Below, piece by piece: positions 13,956-20,911 of a stretch of 64,000 nucleotides of DNA (its first letter is position 1; the number at the start of each line of letters is the position of its first letter). A program made the position numbers and the translations under genes. The stretch covers positions 2,080,001-2,144,000 of the forward strand of contig CAUVXB020000002.1 of assembly GCA_963555825.3 (NCBI GenBank). Reading direction: 5' to 3'. The notes below the pieces were generated by a model. The model saw only the letters and a program-made list of their open reading frames with translations, had not been told where the DNA came from and did no database searches. Origin of the DNA: Alphaproteobacteria bacterium (GTDB lineage: Bacteria > Pseudomonadota > Alphaproteobacteria > JAAXGF01).

Positions 13956-14021
13956 TGAGTCGGACCCGATTTCCTTGGACACAGAATTGGCTTAATCGAA
14001 GTGTCCAAGGAGGACCGGAAC

Positions 14022-14432
14022 ATGACCGACAATTTTGAGAACAAAGTTGCTGTTGATGGGCCTGTGGTAAACGAGGGCGAGCTTGGCTCGTCCACGTTTT
14101 CCCCGGGCCAGGTTTCGCCGGCAGGCCCGCTGGGACTTGGCCAGCGGTGGACGGTGACGCGCAAGCGTGAGGTTGCCCTGCGGCTTTTGCGTGGCGAGCC
14201 GGTGGAACTTTTGTCGCGGCAGTTGGGCGTGGAGATTTTCCGGCTCGAGCAGTGGCGTGAGAAGGCGATCGCCGGGATCGATGCCTCGCTCAAGGAACGC
14301 AAGGGCGATCCGGTGAAGGCGGAACTGGACATCGCCATGAAGCGGATCGGGGAGTTGATCATGCAGGTGGAACTGCTGGAGGCCAAGACGGAGACGTCCG
14401 GCCCTTTGGGGCGGCGGAGGTCGCGGCGATGA
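14022..14432 (+). CDS. Transposase OrfA (HTH)
   Basis: RWTVTRKREVALRLLRGE..LSRQLGV HTH; GGAGG precedes ATG 14022; stop overlaps the OrfB ATG. Confidence 0.8.
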   Translation: MTDNFENKVAVDGPVVNEGELGSSTFSPGQVSPAGPLGLGQRWTVTRKREVALRLLRGEPVELLSRQLGVEIFRLEQWREKAIAGIDASLKERKGDPVKAELDIAMKRIGELIMQVELLEAKTETSGPLGRRRSRR

Positions 14433-15340
14433 GTGCCGCCACCTCTCCCGGCACGGGTTTGGCCTACGGCCTCCAGCGGGTCTGTGCGGCCTGGGGTTTT
14501 GCCCGTTCCTCGTTCTACGCCATGAAATCCCGGCAGCAGGCCACCGCTGAGCGCCCACCAGCAAAGCGCCGGGGACCGAAGCCCTCGATCTCGGACGAGG
14601 CTCTGCTGGTGGCCATCGAGGCCGACCTGGAGGCATCCCCCTGGGAGGGCGAGGGACACCGCAAGGTCTGGGCTCGGCTTCGGGTCTGTCGTGGCATCCG
14701 TGTTTCCCGCAAGCGGGGGCTCCGGGTGATGCGCGAGAACAACCTGCTCTCGCCCCATCGCTGCCGCCGCCGTGGCGGAAATCCCCATGTCGGTGAGATC
14801 ATCACCCATGCCCCCAACCTCATGTGGGGCACGGACGGCGTTCGGGTGTTCACGGTGGACGACGGCTGGGGCTGGATATTCACCGCCATCGAGCATTGGA
14901 ACGCCGAGTGCGTCGGCTGGCATGTGTGCAAGCGAGGCGACCGCTTCGCCGCCCTTCAGCCGATCTCCATGGGGCTTGCGAGGCTGTATGCCTCGACCTC
15001 CGCCGGTGCGGCGCGGGGGCTGGCCTTGCGGATGGATCACGGCTCCCAGTATCTGTCGGACCACTTCACCAACCAGATCAAGTTCTGGGGCATCCAGCCG
15101 TCCTACGCCTTCGTCGAACAGCCCCAGACCAACGGCGTCGCCGAGAGGTTCAATCGCACGCTCAAGGAACAGATCATCCATGGCCGCATCTACCGCAACA
15201 TCGCGGAGCTGCGGAACGCCGTCCGCGGGTTCGTCGAACAGTACAATGCCCAGTGGATCGTGGAGAAGAACGGCTACCTGAGCCCCGCTCAAGCTCGTCA
15301 GGCGTGGCACACCGCGATGTCACTCAGGCCCGCCGCATGA
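14429..15340 (+). CDS. Transposase OrfB (rve integrase core)
   Basis: WGTDG, RMDHGSQY, PQTNGVAERFNRTLKE DDE motif. Confidence 0.9.
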   Translation: MSAATSPGTGLAYGLQRVCAAWGFARSSFYAMKSRQQATAERPPAKRRGPKPSISDEALLVAIEADLEASPWEGEGHRKVWARLRVCRGIRVSRKRGLRVMRENNLLSPHRCRRRGGNPHVGEIITHAPNLMWGTDGVRVFTVDDGWGWIFTAIEHWNAECVGWHVCKRGDRFAALQPISMGLARLYASTSAGAARGLALRMDHGSQYLSDHFTNQIKFWGIQPSYAFVEQPQTNGVAERFNRTLKEQIIHGRIYRNIAELRNAVRGFVEQYNAQWIVEKNGYLSPAQARQAWHTAMSLRPAA

Positions 15341-15572: not shown

Positions 15573-16433
15573 ATGGCAGATGCGGGACCGGCACACCTCG
15601 AATGGAAGGACGCCGTTGAACAGCTCGAACGGGCGAACCGGACGATCGAGGAGCAGGCCGAGCATCTCCAGATGGTCATGGACAGCGCGACGATCTCGAT
15701 CTTCTCGCTGAACATCGAGGGCAAGATCACCAGCGCGAACCAGATGACCGCCGAGATGACGGGCCGGCCGGTCGCCGATCTGATCGGTGCGTCCTTCGCC
15801 GGCTTGATCGATAGCGACGACCCGGCCGAGGCCGAGGCGCTGGTCGCCAAGGTGATCGAGGACGGTTATTTCGTGTCCAATCACGAGGCGACAGTCCGCC
15901 GTCCCGACGCCAGCGTACGGATCATCATCCTCAGCTTGCGCGCCCTGACCCGTGACGGTGACATCACCGGCGTCGCGGGCATCGCGAACGACGTGACCGA
16001 ACTGCGCCAGCAGCGCAAGGCGCTGTCGGCCTATCTGCGCATGCTCGAAACGCCCGACCCGACCCTGCTGTCGCTCATGGTGCGCGAATCGCCTGGCTTA
16101 CCCGCCGAGAGCGCGGCCCAGACCGCGGTCGCCGAGGCCGCCGACGACGCCGCGAACCTCGTCCAGATGGACAAGCAGGAACATCGGTCGCATCCGCGCT
16201 TCAAGGTCTACAAGGGCAGCAAGATCTCATTCAACAACGAAACGTCGATCGTCGATTGCGTCGTGCGCAATCTATCGGAGGGCGGCGCGCGGTTGCAGTT
16301 CCCGTCGCACTTCGACTGCCCGCGCTTCGTCGTCCTGCGCATCTCGGGCGGCAATGCCTACAACTGCGAGGTACGCCAGTTCGCCAACAACATCATGGGC
16401 GTCAAATTCCTCGGCGAGCATATTTCGCTTTAA
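15573..16433 (+). CDS. PAS plus PilZ domain protein (putative c-di-GMP receptor)
   Basis: PAS/PAC ending DVTE; C-terminal RSHPR (RxxxR) and NLSEGG ((D/N)xSxxG) PilZ motifs. Confidence 0.82.
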   Translation: MADAGPAHLEWKDAVEQLERANRTIEEQAEHLQMVMDSATISIFSLNIEGKITSANQMTAEMTGRPVADLIGASFAGLIDSDDPAEAEALVAKVIEDGYFVSNHEATVRRPDASVRIIILSLRALTRDGDITGVAGIANDVTELRQQRKALSAYLRMLETPDPTLLSLMVRESPGLPAESAAQTAVAEAADDAANLVQMDKQEHRSHPRFKVYKGSKISFNNETSIVDCVVRNLSEGGARLQFPSHFDCPRFVVLRISGGNAYNCEVRQFANNIMGVKFLGEHISL

Positions 16434-16681
16434 ACTTGGTGGTTCAGTTCCCAGGGGAACGCCCTTGGTGATGCTGGCGACATAGGCGCGATGCCAACAA
16501 AAGCCATGAAGAGTACTTGAGCCCGTTTCATCGTCGGGTTCTTGGCGTCGAGTGTGTAAAGTTTATGTTTGGCGAAATTTCTCGAGTTGTCCGCTTATGA
16601 TGCGGTGGACGGCTCCCACCCGCAGGCATCTAGGTGCCAAAATGGTGGTTTCGATGAACCACAGGGAAATAGGAGCCGTCC

Positions 16682-17704
16682 ATGAACGAAGTTATCACGA
16701 TCGGTGTTGATCTTGCGAAGAACGTATTTCAGGTGCATGGCGTTGACGCCGAGGGAACCGTGGTCGTCCGCCGTCAGTTGAGGCGGCGTCAGGTGCTGGC
16801 CTTCTTCGAGAAACAGCCGCCCTGCCTGGTTGGTATGGAGGCATGTGCGACCGCGCATTACTGGGCGCGGGAGATCGCGGCGCTTGGGCATGAGGTCAAG
16901 CTGATGCCGCCGCGCTATGTGAAGCCCTACGTGAAGCGGAACAAGAATGACGCTGCCGATGCGGAGGCTATTTGCGAGGCCGTCACGCGCCCGACGATGC
17001 GCTTTGTCGCGGTGAAGAGCGTCGAGCAGCAGAGCGTTCTGATGCTGCACCGAACGCGCGAGCTTCTGGTCCGCCAGAGAACCATGCTGGTCAACGCTAC
17101 GCGGGCGCACATGGCGGAGTTCGGGGTGGTGGCGCGAACCGGGTTGCCGCAGGTCAAGGAGCTGCTCGCGGTGATCAGCGATGAGGCGGATGAGCGCATT
17201 CCGCCCCTGGCGCGGACTTGCCTGGAAGGGCTGGCGCGGCAGTTGCTGTCGCTGGAGCGGGAGATCGTCGGCGCTGAGAGGCGTATCCACGCCTGGCACC
17301 GGACGAACGAAGAGAGCCTGCGTCTCGAAACCACACCCGGCATCGGACCGATCACGGCGAGCGCGCTGGCATCTTCGATTGCCAATCCGTCGATCTTCAA
17401 ATCGGGCCGCTCAATGGCCGCTTGGATCGGGCTGGTGCCAAGACAGAACTCGACCGGTGGCAAGGAGCGCATGGGGCGGATCTCCAAGCAGGGCGATCAA
17501 TACCTGCGCTGGCTGCTGGTCGCCGGCGCCATGACGGTCATCCGCCACGCCAAGCGACGCGGCACGACCGATCCATGGCTTGCCAACATCATCGCCGACA
17601 AGCCGACCAAGGTCGCGGCCGTGGCGCTGGCCAACAAGAACGCCCGCATTGCCTGGGCGCTTCTGAGACATGGCGGAACCTATCGCAGGCCCGCGACGGC
17701 CTAG
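16682..17704 (+). CDS. IS110 DEDD recombinase/transposase
   Basis: IGVDLAK, GMEAC, KNDAADAEAI (DEDD), PGIG, GLVPRQNSTGG (catalytic Ser); intact 340 aa. Confidence 0.96.
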   Translation: MNEVITIGVDLAKNVFQVHGVDAEGTVVVRRQLRRRQVLAFFEKQPPCLVGMEACATAHYWAREIAALGHEVKLMPPRYVKPYVKRNKNDAADAEAICEAVTRPTMRFVAVKSVEQQSVLMLHRTRELLVRQRTMLVNATRAHMAEFGVVARTGLPQVKELLAVISDEADERIPPLARTCLEGLARQLLSLEREIVGAERRIHAWHRTNEESLRLETTPGIGPITASALASSIANPSIFKSGRSMAAWIGLVPRQNSTGGKERMGRISKQGDQYLRWLLVAGAMTVIRHAKRRGTTDPWLANIIADKPTKVAAVALANKNARIAWALLRHGGTYRRPATA

Positions 17705-17719
17705 GCCGACGAAAACAAG

Positions 17720-17940
17720 GCGTTCACGAGTTTGGCGGAGTGTAAGTGACGTAATGCAAAATCGGTCGAACCGAGGATCGGGAAAACCCGCTATAGCCAC
17801 GGCGCCTCGAGCGCGTGCTTATGACTGGGACCCGACCCCGCGGATCGCATTAGGGCCAGCGGCCATGTACGCCGCACCAAAAGGCCGGACACATGGCAGC
17901 ACCCGACCAGCTTGCATCAACGTCACAAAATCTCTTGCCA
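17720..17940 (+). ncRNA. Predicted bridge RNA / seekRNA locus (ends approximate)
   Basis: Guide-like matches to the target (AGCCA 17795, GCTTATG 17817) and donor junction (CGCATTA 17846, ACACATG 17889), each pair flanking a hairpin. Confidence 0.8.
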
Positions 17941-17959
17941 ACAGGGAGCCGTCCACACA

Positions 17960-19654
17960 TGAGACATGGCGGAACCTATCGCAGGCCCGCGACGGCCTAG
18001 GCCGACGAAAACAAGGCGTTCACGAGTTTGGCGGAGTGTAAGTGACGTAATGCAAAATCGGTCGAACCGAGGATCGGGAAAACCCGCTATAGCCACGGCG
18101 CCTCGAGCGCGTGCTTATGACTGGGACCCGACCCCGCGGATCGCATTAGGGCCAGCGGCCATGTACGCCGCACCAAAAGGCCGGACACATGGCAGCACCC
18201 GACCAGCTTGCATCAACGTCACAAAATCTCTTGCCAACAGGGGGCCGTCCACACATGAGACATGGCGGAACCTATCGCAGGCCCGCGTCGGCCTAGGCCG
18301 ACGAAAACAAGGCGTTCACGAGTTTGGCGGAGTGTAAGTGACGTAATGCAAAATCGGTCGAACCGAGGATCGGGAAAACCCGCTATAGCCACGGCGCCTC
18401 GAGCGCGTGCTTATGACTGGGACCCGACCCCGCGGATCGCATTAGGGCCAGCGGCCATGTACGCCGCACCAAAAGGCCGGACACATGGCAGCACCCGACC
18501 AGCTTGCATCAACGTCACAAAATCTCTTGCCAACAGGGAGCCGTCCACACATGAGACATGGACCCGACCTATCGCAGGCCCGCGACGGCCTAGGCCGACG
18601 AAAACAAGGCGATCACGAGTTTGGCGGAGTGCATTAGGGCCAGCGGCCATGTACGCCGCACCAATCAAGGCCGGAACATGGCAGCACCCGACCATGTACG
18701 CTTGCATCAAGGCGTCACGAGCTTGGCGGAATCTCTTGCCAACAGGGAGCCGTCCACACATGACTGGGACCCGACCCCGCGGATCGCATTAGGGCCAGCG
18801 GCCATGTACGCCGCACCAAAAGGCCGGACACATGGCAGCACCCGACCAGCTTGCATCAACGTCACAAAATCTCTTGCCAACAGGGAGCCGTCCACACATG
18901 ACTGGGACCCGACCCCGCGGATCGCATTAGGGCCAGCGGCCATGTACGCCGCACCAAAAGGCCGGACACATGGCAGCACCCGACCAGCTTGCATCAACGT
19001 CACAAAATCTCTTGCCAACAGGGAGCCGTCCACACATGGGCCAACAGGGAGCCGTCCACACATGACTGGGACCCGACCCCGCGATCGCATTAGGGCCAGC
19101 GGCCATGTACGCCGCACCAAAAGGCCGGACACATGTACGCCGCACCAAAAGGCCGGACACATGGCAGCACCCGACCAGCTTGCATCAACGTCACAAAATC
19201 TCTTGCCAACAGGGAGCCGTCCACACATGCCAACAGGGAGCCGTCCACACATGACTGGGACCCGACCCCGCGGATCGCATTAGGGCCAGCGGCCATGTAC
19301 GCCGCACCAAAAGGCCGGACACATGGCAGCACCCGACCAGCTTGCATCAACGTCACAAAATCTCTTGCCAACAGGGAGCCGTCCACACATGCCAACAGGG
19401 AGCCGTGCCAACAGGGAGCCGTCCACACATGCCAACAGGGAGCCGTCCACACATGTACAGGGAGCCGTCCACACATGCCAAAGGGAGCCGGACACATGCC
19501 AACAGGGACCCGTCCGCATGCAACAGGGACGTCCACCATGCCAAAGGGATCCACACATGCCAACAGGGAGCCGTCCACACATGCCACACATGGGAGCCCC
19601 GACCAGCTTGCATCAACGTCACATCACTTGCCAACAGGGAGCCGTCCACACATG
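17960..19654 (+). repeat. Tandem array of IS110 right-end copies (296, 138 and 24 bp units plus mosaic copies)
   Basis: Right-end TG cores at 17960, 18256, 18552, 18761, 18899, 19037, 19063, 19228, 19252, 19390, 19430, 19454 and 19653. Confidence 0.95.
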
Positions 19655-19792
19655 GCTGAGGCGGCTGGGAACGGACATTGGGCGACCGACGCCGCCAGGT
19701 CCGCTTTCCGCTCGTAAGCCGATTCGATTCCCTTGGGAGTCCGGGCGTGAGCCACGGGTCGGCTCGGGTCGGCAAGCCGGGTTGACTTGAAC

Positions 19793-20911
19793 CTAATTCT
19801 CAAGGGTTTGGAGCACGAGGTTCTTGAAGTGGGAGAGCGCGTGCTCGCTCCACGCGCCGCGCTCGGGGTCGAGCATGATGTAGCTTCGCTCGAAGCTTCG
19901 AGACCGCTGGCCGCGCTGAATGCCTTCCGCGACCCCTACATCCTCGGCATTGACGACTTCGGCGGCAAAATTGATCTGTCGCCACTGCTCGTCGGTCGGC
20001 TCGGTATAGGGCAGATAGAAGTCGTACGTCTCGCGGCTGCGCTCGGGGCCGTCCGGCATGATGTGCAGCACCCTGAAGCCGCCGCCCGGCATCGACATCG
20101 GGCACAGGTTCGGCCACAGCCACCAGTTGCGATGCTGCGGGTAGCTTGCGCGGTCGATTTCGAAGCCGCCCGCCAAGCCAGGCCGGGCGTCGCTCGAGTG
20201 GCTCAGGTACTTGCCATGGGCAACGACCCGGTAGCTTTCATCGAGGTTGCTCGCCAGCACGGGGTGAATGACCGGCGTGTGATAATTCTCGTTGTAGTTG
20301 TCGACCAGATTCTTCCAGTTGGATTCGATGACAAACGCCTTGCGGTGAACCAATGTCAGTTCGTCAATCGCCGGCTCGTAGTCGCACATTTCTTGTTCCA
20401 GCCCGGGCATTTGTTCCGAAAGCGCGGCGGCATCGGGATCGAGATTTACGAAGACGAAACCGCAGAAAATCTCGACGCGTACCGGGTTCAGGCAGAACTT
20501 CCCGCTGTCGAATCCCGGCACGTCCGTACTCTTGCGCGCGAACCGCAATGTCCCGTCGGTGTTGTACGTCCACGCATGGTAAGGACAGGTGATGACATCG
20601 ACATGACCACTGCCTTCCAGCAGCCAATGGCCGCGGTGACGGCAGACGTTGTAGAAGGCCTTAAGCCGGCCGTCCTGGTCGCGAATGATGATGATGCTCT
20701 CATCGCCGACCGTGCAGGTTACGAAAGCGCCGGGTTTGCGAAACTGCGAGCGATGGCCAGCGAAATTCCAACACCGATAGAAGATGCGTTCATGCTCGCG
20801 CGCCAGGATTTCAGGGTCCGTGTAGTAGTGTGCGGGAAGCGAGTAACTGTCGTCACGTAGCCGGGCGTCGCCGTCATCGGACATGCTTCGAATTTTCGAG
20901 GTGTCTTTCAT
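19793..20911 (-). CDS. Rieske non-heme iron oxygenase alpha subunit (choline/carnitine monooxygenase-like)
   Basis: NVCRHRG..CPYHAW Rieske motif; NWK..DNYNENYH..IH and ED iron site. Confidence 0.9.
   Translation of the reverse strand: MKDTSKIRSMSDDGDARLRDDSYSLPAHYYTDPEILAREHERIFYRCWNFAGHRSQFRKPGAFVTCTVGDESIIIIRDQDGRLKAFYNVCRHRGHWLLEGSGHVDVITCPYHAWTYNTDGTLRFARKSTDVPGFDSGKFCLNPVRVEIFCGFVFVNLDPDAAALSEQMPGLEQEMCDYEPAIDELTLVHRKAFVIESNWKNLVDNYNENYHTPVIHPVLASNLDESYRVVAHGKYLSHSSDARPGLAGGFEIDRASYPQHRNWWLWPNLCPMSMPGGGFRVLHIMPDGPERSRETYDFYLPYTEPTDEQWRQINFAAEVVNAEDVGVAEGIQRGQRSRSFERSYIMLDPERGAWSEHALSHFKNLVLQTLEN

Follow-up and report, generated by a model that had tools for sequence, protein, structure and literature searches.

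Why does the right end of one insertion sequence recur over and over, in tandem, just downstream of its own recombinase gene? The question is raised by a 64,000-nucleotide (nt) stretch of an alphaproteobacterial genome (assembly GCA_963555825.3), which was analysed as a whole and is called the window here. The genome comprises 6.04 Mb in two contigs (C1 and C2), and the window corresponds to C2:2080001-2144000. It carries an element that we place in the IS110 family, as one of IS1111 type whose guide-RNA region lies on the 3′ side. Directly 3′ of the element lies an array of 1.7 kb (17962-19654), and the chromosomal right flank begins at 19655. Below, "ref" denotes positions within the basic element (16600-17961), against which the array was greedily parsed to obtain unit coordinates.

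The exact right-end 13-mer was found 15 times between 17961 and 19654, in line with a first-pass annotation of the sequence, which had counted at least 13 right ends. The array is built of units of 296, 138 and 24 bp, and each resumes immediately after an internal TG: the 296-bp units after TG 17664-65, the 138-bp units after TG 17822-23 and the 24/25-bp units after TG 17936-37. These are the restart sites that the annotation had quoted, and the array itself, its coordinates and its unit sizes were borne out by both the parse and Tandem Repeats Finder (TRF). The latter reported a period of 296 bp repeated 3.3 times (17664-18631, 98% matches), one of 138 bp repeated 2.2 times and one of 24 bp repeated 2.1 times (100% matches for both), together with a degenerate 24-bp run at 19366-19598. 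As had been claimed, every joint falls on the TG core and the units end at the exact right end. At no joint of the array is the TG followed by the left end.

Both ends of the element were set by five further genomic copies, which are 97-99.9% identical. Inspecting them for the same kind of junctions, as the annotation had recommended, revealed arrays at three of the five, with other unit sizes. Thus, arrays accompany 4 of the 6 genomic copies (Table 1). The exact right end closes every unit at the four arrayed copies. Two of the four arrays are short and clean throughout. In these two, and in the readable 3′ end of the array at C1:2.23 Mb, unit length falls with distance from the gene, which would fit growth at the distal end of the array. 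Related elements in the genome, which have a different terminal base, carry a single right end each; arrays were seen at this element only.

Over the four loci we recorded seven distinct restart sites (ref 491, 1067, 1225, 1229, 1269, 1297 and 1339), all of them preceded by TG. Unrelated joins would give such a result with a probability of about (1/16)^7 = 4e-9, and for this reason the TG cannot be put down to chance. The element contains 92 internal TG sites, 13 of which lie in its last 300 bp. At four of the seven restart sites, identity with the right end is limited to the 2 nt of the TG. Ref 1269, located in the loop of the donor cap hairpin, is a recurrent restart site: it was used at three loci of the genome, and its homologue in the loci L038 and L112.

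Table 1. Features of the element, its guide-RNA region and the right-end arrays (window positions unless a contig is given)
Feature	Position	Strand	Basis or remark
Left target flank (LT)	16590-16599	+	Read from sequence; TG core closes the flank at 16598-16599
Basic IS1111-type element, 1362 bp	16600-17961	+	Last two bases TG (17960-17961)
Left subterminal inverted repeat, 13 bp	16605-16617	+	5 nt inside left end; perfect reverse complement of 17944-17956
Recombinase gene, intact, 340 aa, DEDD/IS110 family	16682-17704	+	Pfam match, open reading frame, GLVPRQNSTG motif
Target-binding stem-loop of seekRNA/bridge RNA	17775-17838	+	Guide covariation, RNAalifold stem
Right-target guide	17791-17799	+	Covaries with reverse complement of right flank
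Left-target guide	17817-17823	+	Covaries with left flank plus core; TG core 17822-17823
Donor-binding part	17846-17895	+	Left-donor guide covariation, RNAalifold hairpin
Right-donor guide	17846-17850	+	Covaries with left end (short match)
Donor cap hairpin	17859-17875	+	RNAalifold; TG at 17866-17867 in loop
Left-donor guide	17888-17895	+	Covaries with right-end variants in L022, L036, L037
Right subterminal inverted repeat	17944-17956	+	5 nt inside right end; part of the right-end 13-mer
Two clean 296-bp units (ref 1067-1362)	17962-18257, 18258-18553	+	TRF, parse; full 3′ non-coding copy, all four guides
Scrambled mosaic, 296-bp and 138-bp registers	18554-18762	+	Alignment to 296-bp unit
Two clean 138-bp units (ref 1225-1362), donor-binding part only	18763-18900, 18901-19038	+	TRF, parse; 100% matches
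Mixed short units	19039-19455	+	Parse: 25/26 bp, 138 with 28-bp duplication, 24, 138, 15-bp partial, 25, 24
28-bp internal duplication in one 138-bp unit	joint 19135/19136	+	Left-donor-guide TG joined to ref 1269
Third clean 138-bp unit	19254-19391	+	Greedy parse
Clean 24/25-bp units	19230-19253, 19407-19431, 19432-19455	+	Greedy parse
Scrambled deletion-rich 24-bp units and degraded partial longer unit	19456-19626	+	Indel count
Last right end joined to chromosomal right flank	19627-19654	+	Parse; X1, X4 and X12 contigs cover 19628/19633-19900 across the joint
Arrayed copy: units of 872 bp, then 66 bp ×3	C2:1.40 Mb		Parse
Arrayed copy: units of 134 bp ×2, then 94 bp ×2	C1:0.17 Mb		Parse
Arrayed copy: scrambled stretch, then 134 and 94 bp	C1:2.23 Mb		Parse

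Not all of the array in the window can be read with equal trust. Two stretches (18554-18762 and 19456-19626) are scrambled, and the annotation had rightly called such mosaics typical of a poor consensus. When 18554-18762 is aligned to the 296-bp unit, 108 letters are deleted and 20 inserted, the insertions being snippets copied from other parts of the unit. At 19455-19583 there are five imperfect 24-bp units with 15 deletions, no insertions and 5 substitutions. Adjacent units are 100% identical and the six genomic copies nearly so; because of this bimodal pattern the scrambled stretches are most likely consensus errors over a repeat rather than decay. The number and order of units in the window array are therefore uncertain.

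Independent cover was sought in assembled contigs of four public runs (X1, X4, X12 and X15). A 326-bp contig of X15, an Illumina RNA library from another study, spans the joint between the right end and ref 1067 (18257/18258) with 175 and 151 letters on its two sides. The joint thus exists in that sample; transcription is not thereby demonstrated. DNA carry-over is possible. One differing base marks each clean 296-bp unit (18243 and 18288). The G at 18243 also occurs in the copy of the element at C2:524 kb and in the X15 contig, and the T at 18288, absent from that contig, may be a consensus error or a strain difference. Contigs of the DNA runs leave 18038-18271 and the scrambled zones (~18560-18730 and 19456-19558) uncovered, which is evidence neither way. 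A 54-bp X12 contig (19406-19455) contains two 24-bp units with fewer than 31 letters on each side of the joint and was not counted as bridging. An X1 joint from 17859 to 18735 was rejected for a side of 22 letters, too short to trust. In X1 and X4 the right end has 2-3 times the contig depth of the body, against exact copies at 12:7 and 6:7 in the assembly; such depths do not give copy number and were left unused.

The architecture is not confined to this genome. Among 80 loci encoding relatives of the recombinase (L001-L080), we found it at three (L038, L071 and L074), in two other genomes. L038 has two units of 98 bp, which restart at the homologue of ref 1269. L071 and L074 have two units of ~193 bp, which restart after a TG that falls inside the right-target-guide DNA, off its core position. 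L071 and L074 hold one and the same expanded element, inserted at two different places in a single genome, so it seems that expanded elements can transpose in one piece. A 62-bp perfect tandem duplication in L021 (5928-6051, at the recombinase stop codon) was dropped as an example: it is internal, does not involve the right end and represents a different event. The last 200 bp of the element matched 10 of 13 genomes of the order and gave no arrays beyond this genome; the others are fragmented (80-520 contigs) and hence uninformative.

A scan of metagenome contigs, limited to two right ends 64-94 bp apart, returned 27 contigs in which the paired right ends are spaced by 64-93 bp, 7 of them without upstream context and 3 not tandem. 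In the remaining 17 the units are 98-100% identical, and the restart follows TG in all 17. A left-donor look-alike is the restart site in 14. Enrichment scoring dropped three more contigs with less than 110 nt upstream, leaving 14 distinct elements. The left-donor guide core is used by 11 of these, where the TG sites in range would predict 7.6 (p = 0.035). A full-length recombinase homologue lies directly upstream in the right orientation in 7 of the 27 contigs, and a half-length one in L121 (48-68% identity).

What kind of element behaves in this way? In the available text of the IS1111-family study (PMC11187229), the group is recognised by a recombinase of 330-350 aa with a GL-P----S/TG motif. 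The protein encoded at 16682-17704 has 340 aa and contains GLVPRQNSTG. We assign the element to the IS1111 group because the protein size, this GL-P----TG motif and the long downstream non-coding region agree with that description. There are 257 nt between the stop (17704) and the right end (17961), and 82 nt upstream of the gene. The RNA of the group is reported to co-purify with its recombinase and to be required in transposition; here, contigs of an RNA library cover the region, which falls short of a discrete RNA. The recombinase, described as intact in the first-pass annotation, matches PF01548 (E 1.7e-16) and PF02371 (E 7.9e-26), that is, both the DEDD (RuvC-like) N-terminal domain and the C-terminal domain are present.

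The reconstructed chromosomal target is CGCTTA-TG-GCT, as the annotation had it. The left flanks of the six genomic copies have a common ..GTCCGCT.. TG pattern, which relatives share. Additionally, many relatives' insertion sites contain the palindromic motif TCCGCTT..TG|GC....AAGCGGA (flanks of L001-L080). This suggests that the shared target of many relatives may be a repeated hairpin element.

The guides were sought by covariation. We aligned the last 200 nt of 31 relatives, chosen by end-finding filters from 81 loci (the 80 plus the window); the 50 loci left out belong mainly to a group of 60-63% identity with a longer non-coding region. Four short segments of the 3′ non-coding region change together with each element's flanks or ends, and this covariation across the 31 relatives confirms four guides there. 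Two of them had been named by the annotation and stood the comparison: the 17822 site is left-target-guide DNA and ACACA-TG (17889-17895) belongs to the left-donor guide, as covariation with flanks and ends shows for the two together. The right-target guide lies 5′ of the left-target guide, which is the IS1111 guide order, and both covary with the flanks. The 2-3 bases 3′ of the left-donor guide track the right flank.

In the RNAalifold consensus, a target stem pairs ref 1176-1183 with 1232-1239; it is capped by a hairpin and shows compensatory changes. The target guides occupy opposite sides of one internal loop, and a second capped hairpin lies between the donor guides. Bridge RNA, as Durrant et al. 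reportedly described it in 2024, has a target loop separate from a donor loop, and in both a left and a right guide surround the core. The region matches this two-loop architecture in its four covarying guides, its target loop and both cap hairpins; the outer closing stem of the donor part is doubtful. No Rfam 15 model matched at E <= 1 within 16000-20400, and Rfam 15 may lack an IS1111-type model. A promoter scan of 16400-18300 returned no promoter-like site, and terminator-like matches were on the minus strand only.

These positions define what each unit carries. A 296-bp unit is a full guide-RNA copy, the 138- and 134-bp units hold the donor part only, a 94-bp unit holds the left-donor guide only, and the 66- and 24-bp units contain no guide. 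The guides are identical in all clean units.

Does the element then target its own guide DNA, as the annotation proposed? Part of this claim stands. Ref 1225 (17824) is the exact left-target guide core, ref 1297 (17896) is the exact left-donor guide core, and ref 1067 is a target look-alike in the recombinase gene matching 5 of 6 target letters. When the 92 internal TG sites are ranked by likeness to a half-site, these three fall within the top 5 (hypergeometric p = 0.0026). As a general rule the claim fails. Ref 491, 1229, 1269 and 1339 have no target or donor resemblance (ref 1229 lies 4 nt from a guide core). A half-site rank test over all seven restart sites is not significant (one-sided p = 0.065). 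For the last 300 bp, the probability of finding the three best half-sites all in use is 0.07. As four of the seven sites lack resemblance, self-targeting would explain array formation only partly. The DNA of the left-target and left-donor guides necessarily copies a half-site plus core, and we tentatively suggest, at somewhat less than an even chance, that the element's own right end recombines with it preferentially.

The anatomy of the array, the TG rule, the guide positions and the recurrence in other copies and genomes were observed directly. We think it probable that behind them stands recombinase-driven recombination of the right end at TG pseudo-sites, in which only the left-donor (LD) half is matched (half-match or LD-only recombination). 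This reading is favoured because the exact right end and the TG core are constant and the partner is what varies. The element's recombinase would join the right end (left-donor arm plus TG core) to an upstream internal TG, and with each joining the stretch from that TG to the right end would be duplicated in situ. Nothing beyond the right-end half-site and the TG core would be required. Internal sites that mimic a half-site would be preferred, not exclusive, the best two being the DNA of the left-target and left-donor guides. Repeated rounds, along with homologous exchange between units, would produce arrays whose units shorten away from the gene, and expanded elements would then move whole via their last right end. 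As to the path, the sequence would fit sister exchange as well as copy-out with resolution in place or a self-insertion that later collapsed. The arrays themselves are presumably by-products without selected function.

Several points weigh against this reading. The recombinase's part in the joints is deduced from sequence comparison. The four sites without half-site resemblance and the two borderline tests (p = 0.065 and p = 0.07) count here as well. The commonest joint, at the left-donor guide, shares 7 nt, and replication slippage would yield an identical product. Uncollapsed self-insertion, whose signature would be a joint of an internal site to the left end, was not found in the genome. 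Scrambled sequence affects two of the four arrays, which makes the exact order and number of units at the window locus unreliable. Finally, the metagenome counts are biased and not all independent, being drawn from 64-94 bp units only, with several contigs showing one insertion twice.

A possible, though doubtful, alternative is that guided self-targeting sets the restarts by itself. The right end, or an excised circle, would insert into the element's own guide DNA, since this DNA is a copy of target or donor, and homologous recombination would collapse the nested copy to a tandem unit. The exact guide cores at ref 1225 and 1297, the look-alike at ref 1067 and the excess of left-donor-core restarts in the metagenome elements speak for it. 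The restarts at ref 491, 1229, 1269 and 1339, and those in L038, L112, L114 and L123, are not at a guide core, however, and that of L071 and L074 is in guide DNA off the core position. Moreover, the guide sites match one half of a full site only, and the genome contains no joint of an internal site to the left end.

An origin independent of the recombinase, by slippage during replication or a template switch from one short direct repeat to another close to the right end, is unlikely. It draws on the identity of at least 2 nt at every joint, which reaches 7 nt at the commonest and 4 nt at the 28-bp duplication. Yet slippage gives no reason for every unit to end at the exact element terminus. 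Four restart sites share nothing beyond TG, and ref 1074, which has 5 nt of identity with the right end and lies 7 nt from ref 1067, is unused, whereas the 2-nt site at ref 1067 is used. An 872-bp unit is long for slippage, and the related elements in the genome are without arrays.

Still less probable, in our view, is that the arrays were selected, whether to raise the dose of guide RNA, to damp transposition by acting as decoys, or to store modules from which new specificities could arise. The annotation had raised such roles, and we found no support for them. Full guide-RNA copies do occur three times at the window locus, and RNA-library contigs cover the region, with DNA carry-over possible. 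Against this, all clean copies have the same guides, many units (66 and 24 bp) contain none, no promoter-like site was seen in the scanned interval, and the arrays differ between copies, as by-products would.

Least probable of all is an artefact of assembling long reads, or reads from excised mini-circles, over a repeat: it would suit the scrambled, deletion-rich stretches in two of four arrays of a two-contig assembly, but the two other arrays are short and perfectly clean, the independent Illumina RNA contig spans one 296-bp joint, and the same architecture recurs in other assemblies, among them metagenome contigs of many samples, and is reported in a published survey.

That survey, a preprint of August 2026 (bioRxiv 10.64898/2026.08.14.744561), describes tandem non-coding repeats with LD-only boundaries beside IS110 recombinases (n=468), and proposes LD-initiated reactions resolved in place as half-match recombination. 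It counts as an expansion at least two adjacent same-strand copies beside the recombinase, with units of at least 50 bp and identity of at least 95%. The window array falls within this definition with its 296-bp unit (3.3 copies at 98%) and its 138-bp unit (2.2 copies at 100%). The likeness is that units adjoin the recombinase gene and that boundaries keep the left-donor (right-end) match only. In the available text of the preprint the partner sites are undefined and "IS1111" does not occur, whereas here the partner is always TG, three of seven partner sites are half-site look-alikes, and two of these are guide-encoding DNA.

Half-match recombination has also been reported in vitro for IS621 (bioRxiv 10.64898/2026.08.31.748434). 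According to the available text, one matching arm plus the core suffices for strand exchange, which explains off-target joints. IS621 differs in being IS110-type, with a 5′ bridge RNA and a CT core, and in having been studied in vitro; the present element is IS1111-type. Closer in build are ISEc11, ISPa11 and ISKpn4, IS1111-family elements with a seekRNA (Nat Commun 2024, PMC11187229). They have in common with it a 340-aa DEDD recombinase with the GL-P----TG motif, subterminal inverted repeats, a downstream non-coding region and a top-strand match 5′ of the bottom-strand match. The available text of that paper describes no arrays; in the present element that region shows donor guides as well. 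ISPpu9 (NAR 2025, PMC12288879) gives rise to sub-element modules and to circles whose boundaries lie at a core dinucleotide common to them. Its modules resemble our units in their end-like boxes and shared core, and small-RNA-only modules stand alone in the genome. As far as the available text goes, diverged versions of both end boxes delimit these modules, which were observed in circular form, whereas the units here are exact copies set head to tail at internal TG sites.

Right-end arrays are thus a kind already in print at preprint level, and the window array is a clear example from the IS1111 branch. The new point may be that the partner sites are core dinucleotides, including those in guide-encoding DNA itself. 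We found no report of guide DNA as a recombination partner in the literature searched, exclusive of the preprints' figures and supplements, which may bear on the point.

Some further fragments were noted in the genome. A diverged relative is represented by a solo right end of ~66 bp (G000 C1:1638212-1638261), which has a target-like left flank ending in TG and is followed by flank. It is the footprint that would be expected after excision, from the first right end, of an element with one extra unit. Solo left ends (133-166 bp) that stem from this element or a relative lie at C2:1617109-1617255 and C2:594718-594872, each preceded by a target-like flank. At C2:525392/525395 and C2:1017028/1017031, this element and a related one that ends in A instead of G meet by their right ends, head to head with 2-3 nt between them; their target sites seem to overlap. 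Upstream of the array locus, the window contains an IS3-family element (14001-15340) with overlapping open reading frames at 14001-14432 and 14429-15340, the second with rve integrase domains.

For annotators, the array is a warning that right-end arrays beside these genes are real and that their exact length in long-read assemblies is unreliable. With four differently built arrays in one genome, the element offers a natural example of half-match activity in RNA-guided bridge recombinases, in a branch less studied than IS621. The position of the joints on the core dinucleotide, with guide-encoding DNA among the preferred partners, bears on the prediction of bridge-editor off-targets and on how such elements grow. 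If the element's right end does recombine preferentially with the DNA of its own guides, donor-loop-only and shorter modules would be a predictable, recurrent by-product across the IS1111 group, and self-reactive guide DNA would name the partner sites left undefined in the published tandem expansions.

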